A stretch of DNA of 64,000 bases, taken from the NCBI GenBank assembly GCA_020241125.1, contig GCA_020241125.1_4708.1, one strand, 5' to 3'. Positions 55,387-64,000 of the stretch are shown in pieces; position 1 is the first letter of the stretch, and each line of letters opens with the position of its first letter. Made by a program: the position numbers and the translations under genes. Below the pieces are notes generated by a model. That model worked only from the letters and a program-made list of their open reading frames with translations, ran no database searches and was not told the DNA's origin. This DNA is from a phage.

Positions 55387-56112
55387 TTAAGACGTTGCCA
55401 TCTTATCTTCCAGAGACTTCTTCGGTAAACCATGGATAACTCCTTCCGGGGTTAAGAACACACAGTCTGGATTCTGCGTTCGCGAACGGTCGTCTGGAGT
55501 GTTCAACGAGAACAACAACGCAGAAATACCTTTCGTCCGGTTTAACGTCGCTACGATCACGTCAAGCTGCCGTAGTGCATCCGATACCGTTCGATGAGGA
55601 ACGATACGTGACTGTTTGAAGCTGGCTAACCGCCAAGTCTCGAACAAACAACGCAGTTTAAACACGTCAGACGGAACAGCAGTAGATCCCTGTTCGATAA
55701 CCTCAACCCGATCAGCTTCAGGATAACCTACGGCAACCGCACTAAAGTGTCTTACCCCATTATGAAAATCATCGATAGATGCTTCAGCGTATTTACATAC
55801 CGTGCCAGAAACGACCATCACTTTTGCTAAACCGCGATAATTGATCGTCAACGGAATACGAAATACACGTAAAGCATGTTCCGGATTTAATGAGACGTCG
55901 TTAACCTTCGTTGCGGTCAGCTTACCACGCTCGTAACGTGCGGTGAACGGCAGCCCGTCATAAACGGGATTGATTACAACGCCCCCTGGGGAGGCGTTAG
56001 CGTTAAGATGGACATTAAGCCAATCGGATACTTCCTGTCTACTAGTTACGATTAACATAAAACGGTCCTCCATTTCTTTTCCTTTATTCATGACGAGTAT
56101 CTTCCAAATCAT
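55387..56112 (-). CDS. LigA-like nucleotidyltransferase-domain protein lacking the catalytic lysine (candidate pseudo-ligase)
   Basis: NPVYDGLPFTARYERGKLTATKV and RVFRIPLTI align with [23 protein letters not shown] and the downstream region of the full-length LigA in this window, but the KxDG lysine is replaced by Val. Confidence 0.4.
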   Translation of the reverse strand: MIWKILVMNKGKEMEDRFMLIVTSRQEVSDWLNVHLNANASPGGVVINPVYDGLPFTARYERGKLTATKVNDVSLNPEHALRVFRIPLTINYRGLAKVMVVSGTVCKYAEASIDDFHNGVRHFSAVAVGYPEADRVEVIEQGSTAVPSDVFKLRCLFETWRLASFKQSRIVPHRTVSDALRQLDVIVATLNRTKGISALLFSLNTPDDRSRTQNPDCVFLTPEGVIHGLPKKSLEDKMATS

Positions 56113-56734
56113 CCCTTTGTTTTGTAAATTCTGATTGCTTGCGATAAACCGTCCACGAATCGTATATGCCGTGAAAGTTCAAATGACGTGCATTTAAGTT
56201 AACGGTGAATTCTTCCACAGAGGAGAAATCCGAACGAAGCATCGAATGGAAGGCGTCATCTCCGGTGCAGCCCCCGTATCCCTCACCCTGATAGATCAAA
56301 AGCTGATGTGGTTGAATACGCGCGGCAACCAGCGCAGCTTGTGGTTCGCAGTAAGGCGGCCACGACAGTAAAATAACATCGTACTGTGAAAGATCGATGT
56401 TCGTGTAGTCGACCTGCTGAATGTCCTCGATAAACGGGTGGGGATGTAATTCCGTATCGTAGGCGGTAACGTCCTCAACACCAAGTTTACGTAGTACATA
56501 AGTCAGGTAACCTGTCCCACAACCCAAATCAGCGACACGTCGCCCGTAACAGATATTCGCTAACTGGAGCGCGGTATCCATGGTTAACAACGACCATCCA
56601 ATGTGCTGGGTACATTCTTCACGCACACTCCATTGTTGATGGTACGTCATGGGTTCTATGATACTAGCAAGCTGCTGGTACGGCAATGGCATTCTGGTTT
56701 CGCCTTGCGTGAGTAATGCAATAACGTTGTTCAT
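56084..56734 (-). CDS. Class I SAM-dependent methyltransferase
   Basis: Motif I VADLGCGTGYL, acidic residue after beta-2 (AYDTE), and YDVILLSWPPY. Confidence 0.6.
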   Translation of the reverse strand: MNNVIALLTQGETRMPLPYQQLASIIEPMTYHQQWSVREECTQHIGWSLLTMDTALQLANICYGRRVADLGCGTGYLTYVLRKLGVEDVTAYDTELHPHPFIEDIQQVDYTNIDLSQYDVILLSWPPYCEPQAALVAARIQPHQLLIYQGEGYGGCTGDDAFHSMLRSDFSSVEEFTVNLNARHLNFHGIYDSWTVYRKQSEFTKQRDDLEDTRHE

Positions 56735-56760
56735 TTTGTTTCCTTTTTTATCAGCATAAA

Positions 56761-56779
56761 CCCTCCCGTGCCGGGAGGG
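56761..56779 (-). terminator. Short palindromic hairpin (member 12)
   Basis: CATAAA-CCCTCCCG-tgc-CGGGAGGG. Confidence 0.5.
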
Positions 56780-56784
56780 TACGA

Positions 56785-57213
56785 TTATTCATTTTCAATA
56801 ACTTTAAGATTCGGCGTACCGAGTGTTTTCTTGACCAACGCCTCAGCAACGCGTTTCTCGATGAAATCGGTCGCATTGCTTCCGTCTATCGTGCGCATGT
56901 CACCACGGAAGTTATTGAAGACCATAAACAAGTCGCAACCGTCGATAGGTATCGCAAGATCATAACTGACTTGTGATGCCGTGAAATGGACACCGACGAC
57001 AACGGCGGGAACGAATTTAACCGCTGTGTTATCTCCTTCTTCTCCGGTTCCGAACGGAAGCTCAACCCGATCACCGATAGAAAATTGCGCAACATCACCA
57101 ATGATGCGAGTTAATGCTGCTCGTTGCATGTCGGCGATATTTTCCTTATTCGCGTCGCAAGGTAGGTCTAAGACTTCTTCCAACGTGAAGAATTTACGAT
57201 CGAACCAGCTCAT
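56785..57213 (-). CDS. Hypothetical protein
   Basis: 142-aa ORF. Confidence 0.45.
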   Translation of the reverse strand: MSWFDRKFFTLEEVLDLPCDANKENIADMQRAALTRIIGDVAQFSIGDRVELPFGTGEEGDNTAVKFVPAVVVGVHFTASQVSYDLAIPIDGCDLFMVFNNFRGDMRTIDGSNATDFIEKRVAEALVKKTLGTPNLKVIENE

Positions 57214-57214
57214 G

Positions 57215-57748
57215 TTAAGCTCCTTTCTGTTTGATTGATGATGTTAACCACGATGATCTTACCGTGAAACCCTCGGACTCGTAGAACGCCTGGGCTTCGT
57301 CGTTATCAGCACGAACATCCAGGCCGATAGAATGCCCGCCGCATCGGTAAGCGATGTTACGTGCTTCGTTCATCAAGGCGTGGCCGATCCCGCGTCCACG
57401 GTATTCCGGTTTTACAACAATCGATGTAACATCATGAATGCCCATATGGCTCTCTGTATTCACTTCCAAGAGGCCTACCGGTATCGAAGCGATGGTGTCG
57501 ATCATAACGACCAACTTTGCGGTGTCCGGTAAACGCTTCTCTAATTCTAAGGCATCGTACTCGCGTTTTAAATCGGGGATATTCTCAAACATAAACGTGG
57601 TTGCCCATGCCTCTGATTCTACATCATCGAGAATACGGTACAGCTCACGAATCTGTCGTTTATGTGGGTAAAGGTGTGGATCGGCAGCCGTTGAGGCGAT
57701 AACGCAATAGAACGGCCGTTCATTAATAACTACTGTTTTGATGCTCAT
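57215..57748 (-). CDS. GNAT-family N-acetyltransferase
   Basis: Acetyl-CoA binding motif RGRGIGHALMNEA followed by AQAFYESEGF. Confidence 0.65.
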   Translation of the reverse strand: MSIKTVVINERPFYCVIASTAADPHLYPHKRQIRELYRILDDVESEAWATTFMFENIPDLKREYDALELEKRLPDTAKLVVMIDTIASIPVGLLEVNTESHMGIHDVTSIVVKPEYRGRGIGHALMNEARNIAYRCGGHSIGLDVRADNDEAQAFYESEGFTVRSSWLTSSIKQKGA

Positions 57749-58251
57749 GCTAAAATTCCCTCATTACCTAACAGTCGATTACGGTGACGTCGGTACATTT
57801 GACAAAGTGTTGTGATTTGATAAAGTTTGTTATAACGTAATTCGATACGTTTTTGCACCTCTTTCCATGAAAGTTTATCATATTGCCGATAACGATGGAT
57901 TTCATTCAACATCCGAAGACGCGTAGGATCGGTATTCTTTATTGTTACGAGCTTCACGCGTTGGTATCCGCGCTGCAACCCCGATTCAGAATACGTAATG
58001 CCGAACTCATCCTGAATGATAGTAATGATCTCCCGCCATCGGCGCTTCTCGCCGTCACGTAAATGGACAACCCGCGATAAGATATCGTTCCGATTACGAT
58101 GACTCAGTTTAATGTTAAGCATTGAAGCAATCGCGCTAATTGCTCTCTGACTCCGCCCTAACGCCTCACCGATCTCTTTCGATGTCATGACGCCAGCGTT
58201 TCGACGTATGAATGCGATTTCGGTTGTTGTGTATTCTTTACCTGCCGCCAT
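57745..58251 (-). CDS. HTH-repeat DNA-binding protein, paralog 1 of 6 (Myb/SANT-like)
   Basis: 168 aa; YTTTEIAFIRRNAGVMTSKEIGEALGRSQRAISAI HTH unit plus basic C-terminal unit; homologous to five upstream neighbours. Confidence 0.55.
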   Translation of the reverse strand: MAAGKEYTTTEIAFIRRNAGVMTSKEIGEALGRSQRAISAIASMLNIKLSHRNRNDILSRVVHLRDGEKRRWREIITIIQDEFGITYSESGLQRGYQRVKLVTIKNTDPTRLRMLNEIHRYRQYDKLSWKEVQKRIELRYNKLYQITTLCQMYRRHRNRLLGNEGILA

Positions 58252-58715
58252 TTCTTACCACGCGTGTTATAATAGTAACGTTGACAAAGATGTGTGTGAT
58301 GGTACTCCCGTTTGAACTCGACATTGATAATGCGAGCAACTTCTCTCCAGCTAACCCCTTCATGTCGAAGTGTCGTGATACGGTCTGAAATTTTGCACCA
58401 TTCACCAGGATCGTATCGTCGCAGTTTATGACGTCGTATTACGGAGGCGACGCTCGCTTTCGAGCGACCAAGATGATTCGACATTCGTTTAATCGAGTAT
58501 CTATGGATATTATCGCGAATATAGGAAAGCTCGTTGTCTGTATACGTCGCGTTGGTTCTCGGCGAAGGGAACAATACGTATAACTTATTCTTAATCGCGC
58601 TTTCTGTGCGTTGAAACACGGTAACCAGTTCACTAATCGATGGTCTAGGTATTTGATACGCGTAATTCTCGAGGCGTGAGAGTTCCTCATCTGTCCAGCG
58701 GCGGTATTTGCGCAT
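58185..58715 (-). CDS. HTH-repeat DNA-binding protein, paralog 2 of 6
   Basis: Start set at internal Met (MRKYRRWTDEEL) to avoid overlap with upstream gene; three units, e.g. WTDEELSRL...ISELVTVFQRTESAIKNKL. Confidence 0.55.
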   Translation of the reverse strand: MRKYRRWTDEELSRLENYAYQIPRPSISELVTVFQRTESAIKNKLYVLFPSPRTNATYTDNELSYIRDNIHRYSIKRMSNHLGRSKASVASVIRRHKLRRYDPGEWCKISDRITTLRHEGVSWREVARIINVEFKREYHHTHLCQRYYYNTRGKKWRQVKNTQQPKSHSYVETLAS

Positions 58716-59190
58716 GGGCAACTCCTTTGTTTTTCGTGTAATAACACCAACGTTGATACAACGCATGTTTATTCGTTGTAATCCCAAATTTAACAACAAC
58801 GTCGTATGTGATAATATTCCAATTTTGGGTGACGTTAAGTCGTTCCGCGATAAACGCGATAATCGCTTCCCGTTCTTGCTTGGTTAACGCACGACGAATT
58901 CCATTAAGCCGTATAAACTGACGAACCGAGTCATACGAACGGTTTAAATCATACGCAATCTCCCTCAGCGATTTTTGTTTGATTACGGACTTGATGTACG
59001 CACGTTCTTCTTCCGTATACGGTCGATGCTTCTGGCGTTGACGTATTCCCAAACGCCCCAGACACGCGTCGATGCTGGCGTATGTTCGTCCTGTCCGTTG
59101 TGCGATTTCATCAATCGTCAGCGGCGTGTTCAAGTACATGTGTGTAACATCTTTTAACTCATCGTTACGCCACGGCCGAGGTCGTCCCAT
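58687..59190 (-). CDS. HTH-repeat DNA-binding protein, paralog 3 of 6
   Basis: 167 aa; WRNDELKDV...IDEIAQRTGRTYASIDACLGRL and two further units. Confidence 0.6.
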   Translation of the reverse strand: MGRPRPWRNDELKDVTHMYLNTPLTIDEIAQRTGRTYASIDACLGRLGIRQRQKHRPYTEEERAYIKSVIKQKSLREIAYDLNRSYDSVRQFIRLNGIRRALTKQEREAIIAFIAERLNVTQNWNIITYDVVVKFGITTNKHALYQRWCYYTKNKGVAHAQIPPLDR

Positions 59191-59668
59191 CTTGTATCCC
59201 TCTTTTCTTTCTATGATGCCACCAACGCTGATAAACAGCTTGCTTCGTCCGTGTTATGCCAAAATGCGCATTAACCCGTTCAGCAATGTGGTACCAATCC
59301 TGCGTTTCTTCTAACAATGCATCAACGAAGGCTATGAAGATCTTAGTATCATCCTCGCTTAACCGCTTGAAGCCATGGCGGTGTGCTATTGTTCGAATAC
59401 TGTTTGGATCTCTGTTTAAATCGCGTGCGAGCTGTTTGTAACTTTTGTGCTTACAGTGTAGTCTGATATGTTCTAATTCATCGACGCTGAAACGTTTATG
59501 CGGTTTACGGCGTTCGACGTTTAAGTACCTCAACCTTGATTCGATTGCACCGTACGTCGTTTCCATGATTTCCGCGATTTCACGGATTTTTAATTTCGGG
59601 CGACGATCGTATAGTTTCAGCAACTGCTCATCGTACTTACGATTCCATCGTCGTACTGGGGGTTTCAC
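59165..59668 (-). CDS. HTH-repeat DNA-binding protein, paralog 4 of 6
   Basis: 167 aa; same three-unit architecture, C-terminal ...HFGITRTKQAVYQRW conserved with paralog 3. Confidence 0.6.
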   Translation of the reverse strand: MKPPVRRWNRKYDEQLLKLYDRRPKLKIREIAEIMETTYGAIESRLRYLNVERRKPHKRFSVDELEHIRLHCKHKSYKQLARDLNRDPNSIRTIAHRHGFKRLSEDDTKIFIAFVDALLEETQDWYHIAERVNAHFGITRTKQAVYQRWWHHRKKRGIQDGTTSAVA

Positions 59669-59670
59669 AA

Positions 59671-60150
59671 CTAGATTTCTCCTGTTCTACGCGTTTTTAA
59701 TGCTTGAGTGTAGTAAAGGGTATGAACACCGCTTAACGTGTAATGGGTGTTAAATTCGTTATTGATGATATTCTGTATTCTCTCCCAGGTTTTCTTCTCT
59801 TTTCTAAGAGTATGTATTCGGTGATAGATCATCTCTCGACGTTGCGCTTTGCACGCGATAATACCGTAGCGGTAGCAGAGTTTAGCGATCGCATCCACGC
59901 TACGATTGAACATTACCGCGGCTTCTTTCACGCTGTGCGTCTTGAGATAATCGGCTAACATCACGCGTTCTTCGAAACAACAATAGCGGTGACGCGACGT
60001 GAGTTTCCAGCGCTTGCGATTACGGTTAATTCGACCTTGAACCGAACCTTCCGTTCGGCCAAGTCGTACCGCAATCTCTTGCATCGGTATACCGTTTCGG
60101 TACAGGGTAATCAACATCGCATCTTCTTCGGGTGTCCAGTCCTTGACCAT
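59671..60150 (-). CDS. HTH-repeat DNA-binding protein, paralog 5 of 6
   Basis: 159 aa; WTPEEDAMLITLYRNGIPMQEIAVRLGRTEGSVQGRINR fits Myb/SANT consensus W-T-x-EED-x-L...IA..L.GRT. Confidence 0.6.
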   Translation of the reverse strand: MVKDWTPEEDAMLITLYRNGIPMQEIAVRLGRTEGSVQGRINRNRKRWKLTSRHRYCCFEERVMLADYLKTHSVKEAAVMFNRSVDAIAKLCYRYGIIACKAQRREMIYHRIHTLRKEKKTWERIQNIINNEFNTHYTLSGVHTLYYTQALKTRRTGEI

Positions 60151-60162
60151 AATGCCACCCCA

Positions 60163-62853
<2,691 letters not shown>

Positions 62854-63566: not shown

Positions 63567-63825
63567 TTACGCCAGGCGGTACCACAATACCGGTACGAAT
63601 CACAGCAGCAACTTCCTGCATGCCCTTACCCTTCAACGCATAGGTTTCATGTACCACATTACGTCGAGTCGTTAATCCAACAAATTTACATACAACCATG
63701 TTGTTTTCTGAAAGATAAGCGGTGTCGAGTTCACCGTGCAACAATTCTTTTTCTTTGGTATCAATACCTAATAACGCAATTTGATAAGCAGAAAGTTTCC
63801 AATAACGCATAATCGTCCTATTCAT
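63517..63825 (-). CDS. Hypothetical protein
   Basis: 102-aa ORF; start uncertain (overlaps downstream ORF). Confidence 0.4.
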   Translation of the reverse strand: MNRTIMRYWKLSAYQIALLGIDTKEKELLHGELDTAYLSENNMVVCKFVGLTTRRNVVHETYALKGKGMQEVAAVIRTGIVVPPGVSDNLDEVLHGTRKTAR

Positions 63826-64000
63826 AAACTATCAAATATTCTGAAACCAAGTTTCTTGTTTCTACTTTTGCCGAAATCGTTCTTCGTACAGTTACAGGGT
63901 ACAATTTTGTCGCCGAACTATAAATCTCTTCAGTCAACGCACAAGCACTGTTGCTAATGATTGTAGGAATTCCCCGCGAGCGCAAGTTGTCAGCCTTTTC

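Follow-up and report, generated by a model that had tools for sequence, protein, structure and literature searches.

A methyltransferase and a GNAT acetyltransferase encoded side by side in a Goslar-like jumbo phage are probably independent accessory enzymes

We propose, with a probability of about 60%, that three genes located at positions 56084-57748 of the window (the whole 64,000-nt stretch of phage DNA analysed here) are accessory genes of a nucleus-forming, Goslar-like jumbo phage that are independent of each other and form no functional module, and that the acceptor of the methyltransferase encoded by one of them is not DNA. The three ORFs lie on the minus strand after six HTH genes, at the coordinates given by the sequence-only reading. 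They encode a 177-aa GNAT-family N-acetyltransferase (57215..57748), an acidic 142-aa protein without assigned function (56785..57213) and a 216-aa class I SAM methyltransferase (MTase; 56084..56734). The six HTH ORFs upstream of the GNAT gene (57745-60510) are mutual paralogs by blastp (E values from 1e-4 to 1e-26), and 4 nt of the last one overlap with the start of the GNAT gene.

Comparison with Escherichia phage Goslar, itself a nucleus-forming jumbo phage, revealed about 92-94% identity to the window. The same genes occur in the same order in vB_EcoM_Goslar as gp111, gp112 and gp113 (YP_009820796-98), with protein identities of 90% for the MTase (gp111), 94% for the 142-aa protein (gp112) and 97% for the GNAT (gp113). 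RefSeq labels these Goslar products as a class I SAM-dependent methyltransferase, a hypothetical protein and an acetyltransferase, respectively, and our literature search found no paper on the function of gp111-113. Compared with Goslar and with a more distant relative, the three genes displayed dN/dS values of 0.05-0.13, similar to those of the neighbouring DNA ligase gene. Therefore, all three are real genes under purifying selection. The annotated start of Goslar gp111 is 7 codons longer than ours but is out of frame in the window, where the conserved ATG start codon lies at 56734 behind an AAGGA ribosome-binding site.

A conserved GC-rich hairpin with a 9-bp stem and a 3-nt loop (56760..56780, minus strand) fills part of the 50 nt that separate the 142-aa gene from the MTase gene, and divides the latter from the tightly packed HTH-GNAT-142aa block. 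This hairpin may be a transcript boundary or a stability element; promoter and terminator scans returned signals no better than chance. The 142-aa protein was described from the sequence as an unknown, in agreement with the lack of family matches in Pfam and PHROG. Its close homologs number only seven, its homologs being confined to Goslar-like phages apart from a distant one in Erwinia phage Bue1, and its AF2 model is unusable (pLDDT 43.7).

The sequence-only reading had presented the MTase and the GNAT as a pair. This view did not survive comparison with other genomes, as no GNAT and no relative of the 142-aa protein was found within about 6 kb of the MTase gene at any of 34 non-Goslar-like loci. 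Furthermore, in four other phages that carry both families, the two genes are separated by more than 100 kb (roughly 195-200 kb by record coordinates). The MTase-GNAT adjacency is thus lineage-specific and not a conserved module. All-against-all comparison of the flanks of 38 loci revealed no conserved neighbour of the MTase; apparent common neighbours turned out to be LAGLIDADG inteins inside helicases, or a DHFR confined to one lineage.

The class I assignment of the MTase held. Residues 35-198 align with positions 32-190 of the 191-position PHROG 19090 profile (E = 9.7e-18), and judged by this match the protein is a full-length member of that family, which carries the label function unknown. 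The structure model is a confident Rossmann methyltransferase with a seven-stranded alpha/beta fold (pLDDT 86.6). Fold searches returned a flat ranking of generic class I matches, and the Pfam matches, also generic to class I, all fell below threshold. Assignment to a family by Pfam, NCBIfam and PDB profile searches was not retained, since the alignments stop at motifs I-IV; neither Pfam nor NCBIfam holds a model of this family. We found both peptides quoted earlier in the translation, VADLGCGTG at residues 67-75 and LLSWPPY at residues 122-128. Motif I (D69-L-G-C-G-T-G75) keeps its GxGxG intact, as does motif II its acid, D93, and among 95 family members the SAM site is well conserved (G73 in 93, G75 in 92 and D93 in 92). 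With no target-recognition or other extra domain, the MTase is best described as a stand-alone, single-domain Rossmann-fold enzyme predicted to bind SAM.

Taking the collected relatives to be the PHROG 19090 family, we counted 343 cluster representatives at E < 1e-30; the family is thus sizeable (hundreds of 50%-identity clusters) and it is mostly viral. Its members come from jumbo phages, from haloarchaeal viruses and from a small number of metagenome-assembled genomes (MAGs). Like the 216-aa MTase, relatives in jumbo phages and haloviruses are single-domain proteins of about 200 aa. The longer members carry extra regions without recognisable domain, except in two MAG proteins in which the MTase domain is fused to TPR repeats, a hint of protein interaction. 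Klosneuvirus proteins match the MTase at fold level only (16-20% identity). Besides motifs I and II, the family shares R38, [S/T]-W-P-x-Y past beta-4, Y-Q-G-E-G-x-G-G-C past beta-5 and H-D-x-W ahead of the last strand. In the phage protein these correspond to the motif IV loop S124-W125-P126-P127-Y128, to Y148-Q-G-E151-G-Y-G-G-C156-T-G-D-D and to D192-x-W194. The loop past beta-5 is nearly invariant, with Cys156 in 94 and Glu151 in 93 of the 95 members. These features mark out an uncharacterised family that is distinct and enriched in viruses.

The MTase is strongly acidic (pI 4.84, net charge -15), as is the family (median pI 5.3). Acidic RNA methyltransferases exist, for example E. coli TrmA, with a pI of 5.7. 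Among the 95 members we found no conserved basic patch beyond R38. The acceptor is therefore most likely not DNA, given the strong acidity of the protein and the lack of both a target-recognition domain and a conserved basic patch. Placed on the class I topology, the conserved loops, three in number, would line a single pocket adjacent to the methyl group of SAM, enriched in aromatic (W125, Y128, W194) and acidic (E151, D192) side chains. Judging from charge, the lack of extra domains and the flat fold ranking, a small molecule or a cationic amine would be the leading acceptor class, at less than an even chance; a basic protein is a tentative second candidate, RNA is rather less probable, and DNA or a nucleotide is improbable.

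Among more specific alternatives, the one that fares best, although we hold it unlikely, is modification of tRNA or rRNA by the MTase, which might serve to adjust translation or to shield tRNA from host anticodon nucleases. Consistent with this, the homolog in halovirus HGTV-1 sits within a tRNA gene array, and two tRNA genes lie about 2.5 kb from the homolog of Aeromonas phage ZPAH34. Among solved structures, METTL5 and an rRNA m5U methyltransferase (8z62) match best in sequence, the latter giving the best profile-to-PDB match (E = 9e-6, motifs I-IV only), and the size of the MTase is similar to that of stand-alone RNA methyltransferases such as METTL5 (chains of 209-215 residues). Furthermore, the presence of the family in viruses of both bacteria and archaea suggests a substrate that is probably universal. 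However, a general tRNA linkage had to be rejected, as tRNA genes were seen only in HGTV-1 and ZPAH34; the window contains none, and they are missing from the vicinity of most homologs. The acidity of the family, its lack of a conserved basic patch beyond R38 and the restriction of the sequence matches to motifs I-IV also argue against an RNA substrate, and an hhalign comparison with E. coli TrmA aligned motif I only, with a probability of 4.9%.

Less probable still is that the near-invariant Glu151/Cys156 loop and the aromatic-acidic pocket perform an unusual reaction by which viruses manipulate their hosts. Such a reaction could be a Cys-assisted C-methylation, or it could methylate a small molecule of universal occurrence, for example a polyamine, a nucleotide or a molecule of immune signalling. 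Its users would be large viruses infecting bacteria and archaea, perhaps joined by eukaryotic giant viruses, for which the matches are at fold level only. Since this Glu/Cys loop is distinctive, the family would be worth including in a biochemical screen.

The acetyltransferase assignment was confirmed. The peptide RGRGIGHALMNEA, quoted in the sequence-only reading, is present in the 177-aa translation, which passed the Pfam Acetyltransf_1 cut-off (54.9 bits against 20.7, E = 1e-14). The acetyl-CoA site is intact, with motif A reading RGRGIG (R-x-x-G-x-G), and a conserved Tyr lies within an FYxxxGF segment. We rejected RimI, the ribosomal protein S18-alanine N-acetyltransferase, as its identity, because the score against TIGR01575 (55.4 bits) is below the equivalog cut-off (86.4) and the alignment covers residues 105-163 only. 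The protein in fact scored below every curated equivalog cut-off. The best solved relatives include SpeG, PaiA and YpeA, and close relatives (at least 83% identity) were found only in Goslar-like phages. With RimI, SpeG and PaiA, its nearest characterised relatives, the phage protein shares the GNAT fold, the R-x-x-G-x-G motif and the Tyr in FYxxxGF, but it differs from them in missing the equivalog cut-offs. Its most likely acceptor would be a polyamine or an amine group of a host protein. PADLOC assigned no defence system to the GNAT or to the 142-aa protein.

It is improbable that the MTase and the GNAT cooperate on a shared target, such as ribosomal or other basic host proteins, in the manner of PrmA and RimI, the 142-aa protein serving as adaptor. 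In a diverged Goslar-like relative, the order of the GNAT, 142-aa and MTase genes is kept even though the 142-aa protein has drifted to 62% identity, so that some co-function inside the Goslar-like lineage might still exist. RimI is the best curated match of the GNAT, PrmA is among the weak matches of the MTase, and an acidic enzyme would suit basic protein substrates. Earlier work has also noted GNATs of jumbo phages that lie close to ribosomal-protein GNATs (PMC7824862). In contrast, the two families are unlinked beyond the Goslar lineage, the RimI and PrmA scores are far under the curated cut-offs, and the conserved hairpin sets the MTase gene apart from the GNAT-142aa block. In phage Bue1, moreover, the 142-aa relative stands alone beside structural genes.

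A mechanism in which Cys156 acts as nucleophile and Glu151 as general acid/base, as in C5-pyrimidine methylation, yielding m5U or m5C on RNA, DNA or a nucleotide, also appears improbable. In m5U methyltransferases, the catalytic Cys belongs to motif VI, in the loop past beta-5, which is where the near-invariant Cys and Glu of this family reside; motif VI reads YISCNP in E. coli TrmA and YVSCNP in E. coli RlmD. From the Cys to the acid ahead of the last strand there are 36 residues here and 34 in TrmA, the top PDB profile match is an m5U methyltransferase, and one homolog is encoded near ThyA and DHFR genes. Yet we rejected membership in the RNA m5U methyltransferases (TrmA, RlmC, RlmD) because the DPPR of motif IV, the SCNP Cys of motif VI and the Glu of motif VIII are missing. 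The Cys lies 8 residues past the conserved Tyr instead of 3, the TrmA alignment extends over motif I alone, the protein is acidic, and the Cys may equally be structural or metal-binding.

The sequence-only reading had noted a loose resemblance of WPPY to the (D/N/S)PP(Y/F/W) motif of amino-methyltransferases, and in location this stands: WPPY occupies the loop right past beta-4 (model strand 120-124), the motif IV site. The 216-aa MTase shares its class I fold with Dam, the N6/N4 DNA methylases, HemK/PrmC, RsmC/RsmD and METTL5. With amino-methyltransferases it further shares a Pro-containing aromatic loop past beta-4 and a similar spacing from motif I to motif IV. In residue identity the resemblance fails, as all 95 members carry Trp125 where amino-methyltransferases need the D/N/S that hydrogen-bonds the target amine. 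Position 127 is variable (D in 36 members, P in 25, C in 12). With an invariant Trp and a second Pro in only 25 of the 95, the motif of the family becomes [S/T]-W-P-x-Y. Unlike amino-methyltransferases, the family lacks a target-recognition domain and has the additional conserved Glu/Cys loop. The [DNS]PP[YFW] motif is absent from all window ORFs of at least 100 aa. No DNA-methyltransferase Pfam family matched the MTase at E <= 0.1, nor any of its 95 relatives at E <= 0.001. The Pfam families that it and its relatives match are the generic Methyltransf_23/25/11/31 and MTS. As far as this could be tested, the MTase thus groups with small-molecule or rRNA methyltransferases, an outcome that the sequence-only reading had named as counting against its proposal.

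The nucleic-acid-modifying role suggested earlier thus found no backing, and its DNA version, an N6-adenine or N4-cytosine methyltransferase that protects the phage genome or modifies host DNA, is the least probable reading of all: the motif IV position of WPPY, a weak match to the PADLOC type II methyltransferase model MTase_II (residues 55-129, motifs I-IV, E = 1e-5) and a PhiCh1 homolog that directly follows two annotated DNA methyltransferases are outweighed by the Trp in place of D/N/S, the poorly kept second Pro, the acidity of the protein and the lack of a target-recognition domain and of DNA-methyltransferase Pfam matches.

Taken alone, the trio matters little, as the same annotation already exists in Goslar and both enzymes come from very large superfamilies. 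The window also carries, at its right end (63818-64000), a gene for a Dam-family DNA methylase that is absent from Goslar; the rest of this gene lies beyond position 64000. This enzyme is a better candidate than the 216-aa MTase for any DNA methylation in the phage. Its presence would confound a methylome reading of phage DNA, and studies of DNA modification in this phage must reckon with it.

We observed that the three genes singled out by the sequence-only reading all lie on the minus strand, with the quoted peptides present: a 216-aa class I SAM methyltransferase gene (56084-56734; VADLGCGTG and LLSWPPY), a gene for an unknown 142-aa protein (56785-57213) and a 177-aa GNAT gene (57215-57748; RGRGIGHALMNEA). 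As that reading had also stated, the trio is directly downstream of six HTH genes. These ORFs (57745-60510), transcriptionally upstream of the trio and immediately adjoining it, are mutually paralogous (blastp E 1e-4 to 1e-26), small (115-204 aa as ORFs) and weakly matched to HTH and to PHROG 323 'transcriptional regulator', and are arranged in tandem between the GNAT gene and a preceding NAD-dependent DNA ligase gene. Five paralogs are called at this position in L025, a diverged Goslar-like contig, versus six in the window. The last HTH gene and the GNAT start share 4 nt, a single nucleotide lies between the GNAT stop and the 142-aa gene start, and a 50-nt gap follows ahead of the methyltransferase gene. 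In this gap, a perfect 9-bp GC-rich hairpin (56760-56780; ACCCTCCCG-GCA-CGGGAGGGT) with a fold energy of -17.4 kcal/mol (z = -3.0) stands between the methyltransferase gene and the tightly packed HTH-GNAT-142-aa block. In Goslar, L025 and L026 (a second contig of the same lineage), the stem is unchanged and the loop varies; the hairpin is single-copy in the window and followed only by UUUAU, and may act as a transcript boundary or stability element.

Over 3 kb, the trio region shares 92.2% identity with Escherichia phage vB_EcoM_Goslar, and identity to this phage across the window's first 25 kb is 94.5%. Goslar is a jumbo phage that forms a nucleus (PMC11895373). The three genes are ordinary accessory genes that are already annotated in Goslar, where their counterparts gp111, gp112 and gp113 bear the RefSeq labels class I SAM-dependent methyltransferase, hypothetical protein and acetyltransferase, respectively. 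All three have dN/dS values of 0.05-0.13 against both Goslar and the more distant L025, and are therefore functional genes; the neighbouring ligase gave 0.07-0.085 in the same comparisons. The conserved methyltransferase start is the ATG at 56734, with AAGGA ahead, giving 216 aa. The RefSeq gp111 start (MPIKGNK...) is out of frame in the window (window 56734-56756; NC_048170 117646-117666), and in Goslar the gene is probably annotated with 7 codons too many. Downstream, the gp110 counterpart (55387-56112; basic, pI 8.8) had no family match; its start is likely at 56058, giving 223 aa, in which case the methyltransferase gene is not overlapped.

The pairing of the methyltransferase with the GNAT did not hold beyond the Goslar-like lineage. 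L025 and L026 keep the order ligase, HTH array, GNAT, 142/147-aa gene and methyltransferase, with 81.5% identity for the methyltransferase and 62% for the middle protein. In the four other phages with both families (KpLz_1_41, KpYy_2_45, MJ359 and LPKP23), the two genes are more than 100 kb apart, approximately 195-200 kb in record coordinates. Furthermore, none of 34 non-Goslar-like loci of the methyltransferase family had a GNAT or 142-aa relative within about 6 kb, and no other conserved neighbour of the family was found across the compared loci. The pairing is lineage-specific synteny.

Pfam and NCBIfam matches of the 216-aa protein (METHYLTRANSFERASE) are generic class I, sub-threshold and confined to the SAM-binding half (FtsJ, Methyltransf_23, MTS, TehB, PrmA and BioC), while PHROG 19090, of unknown function, aligns end to end (E 1e-17). 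An AlphaFold model built from 13 input sequences was confident (pLDDT 86.6, pTM 0.86) and displays strands in the class I order, preceded by a helical N-terminal extension some 60 residues long. Searching 1.84 billion cluster representatives with a profile revealed 343 relatives at E < 1e-30 and 3,694 at E < 1e-10; nearly all have a single domain and a length of about 200 aa. The family occurs in jumbo phages of Aeromonas, Salmonella, Klebsiella, Serratia, Xanthomonas, Stenotrophomonas and Pseudomonas, in one Streptococcus phage and in the haloarchaeal viruses PhiCh1, phiH and HGTV-1; the match to Klosneuvirus giant-virus proteins (16-20% identity) is one of fold only. In 185,579 species genomes, no more than 18 loci were found, most of them on contigs of metagenome-assembled genomes (MAGs). 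No member was found in phiKZ, 201phi2-1 or PhiPA3, indicating that among nucleus-forming phages the family is accessory. On bacterial MAG contigs, two proteins (820-872 aa; L010:3967-6585 and L011:3949-6411) combine TPR repeats with a C-terminal family domain, which hints at protein-protein contacts; their N-terminal regions are unlike each other and without recognised domain. On another contig (L005 1578-3642; Logan contig SRR20336961_65578), a GIY-YIG homing endonuclease gene interrupts a phage thymidylate synthase gene, with DHFR and a family member just downstream.

The WPPY segment had been loosely likened to the (D/N/S)PP(Y/F/W) motif of amino-methyltransferases. Its position agrees with this comparison, as W125-P126-P127-Y128 directly follows beta-4 (residues 120-124) in the model and therefore forms the motif IV loop, but its residues do not. 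Across 95 aligned members, W125 never varies, P126 is retained in 93 and Y128 in 77, position 127 varies (Asp 36, Pro 25, Cys 12) and so does position 124 (Ser 57, Thr 17, Cys 9, Ala 8), which defines a family motif [S/T]-W-P-x-Y. In Dam, HemK and RsmD-type enzymes, D/N/S at motif IV hydrogen-bonds the target amine, whereas this family has an invariant Trp at that position; the amino-methyltransferase signature was rejected. Also near-invariant are R38 in an N-terminal helix, G150-E151 directly after beta-5, G155-C156 in the ensuing Gly-rich loop, and D192 and W194 ahead of the last strand. Judged by class I topology, the conserved loops would surround the methyl-transfer site. The earlier interpretation is partly supported. 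The enzyme falls in a viral family that is uncharacterised, and it is no canonical DNA amino-methyltransferase. What novelty remains lies in the substrate of this family.

All comparisons aimed at substrate class were flat. Foldseek against the PDB gave weak hits (best E 8e-6, TM ~0.45), headed by small-molecule N-/O-methyltransferases (CcbJ, ToxA, CypM and TehB-like proteins). The protein is acidic (pI 4.84, net charge -15), as is its family (median pI 5.3, two thirds of members below pI 6), whose sole near-invariant basic residue is R38. A small or cationic molecule, or a basic protein, is the most probable acceptor. RNA is the main alternative: when PDB sequences were searched with the 95-sequence profile, the m5U rRNA methyltransferase 8z62 came first (E 9e-6, motifs I-IV only), and the HGTV-1 homolog lies within a dense tRNA gene array and the ZPAH34 homolog at a distance of about 2.5 kb from a pair of tRNA genes, both counting for the nucleic-acid side. 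The HGTV-1 member (L029 3845-4489) overlaps the 3' end of an annotated tRNA-Leu gene.

The suggested DNA-modifying role is very unlikely, given the acidic protein, the Trp in motif IV and the Pfam scan, in which the 95 members matched Methyltransf_23 (43), Methyltransf_25 (21), MTS (20), Methyltransf_11 (11) and Methyltransf_31 (11) and no DNA-methyltransferase family at E <= 0.001. On its side, the PhiCh1 homolog comes directly after two annotated DNA methyltransferases; residues 55-129, the shared SAM-binding half, matched a PADLOC type II methyltransferase model (E 1e-5). Mimicry of C5-pyrimidine methyltransferases by the invariant Cys/Glu loop is improbable, as hhalign of the family profile with E. 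coli TrmA aligned motif I alone (probability 4.9%).

No window ORF of at least 100 aa contains [DNS]PP[YFW]. A Dam-family (MethyltransfD12) protein is, however, cut by the window end: its C-terminal 61 residues are encoded on the minus strand by the last 183 bases (63818-64000) and are 88.5% identical to a 275-aa MethyltransfD12 protein of L025 (897-1724) that carries the canonical DPPY. Its nearest relatives in the phage collection and database are enterobacterial Dam proteins (44% identity), and Goslar lacks the gene. This is a genuine DNA adenine methylase gene; any methylome of the phage would therefore show Dam-type methylation unrelated to the 216-aa enzyme.

The GNAT exceeds the Pfam Acetyltransf_1 threshold (54.9 versus 20.7 bits) and has the acetyl-CoA motif RGRGIG. 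Its best curated match, RimI, scored 55.4 bits, below the 86.4 cut-off, and the best relatives with solved structures are uncharacterised GNATs, SpeG, PaiA and YpeA (E 1e-7 to 1e-5). Close homologs (at least 83% identity) occur in Goslar-like contigs only, and other jumbo phages have distant ones (~25% identity). An earlier published survey noted, in phiKZ-like jumbo phages, GNATs whose closest relatives are ribosomal-protein acetyltransferases (PMC7824862). The 142-aa protein matched no family in Pfam, PHROG, NCBIfam or PADLOC, and its AF2 model was unusable (pLDDT 43.7). Its homologs are Goslar-like, except for one in Erwinia phage Bue1 (34% identity) whose gene adjoins structural genes.
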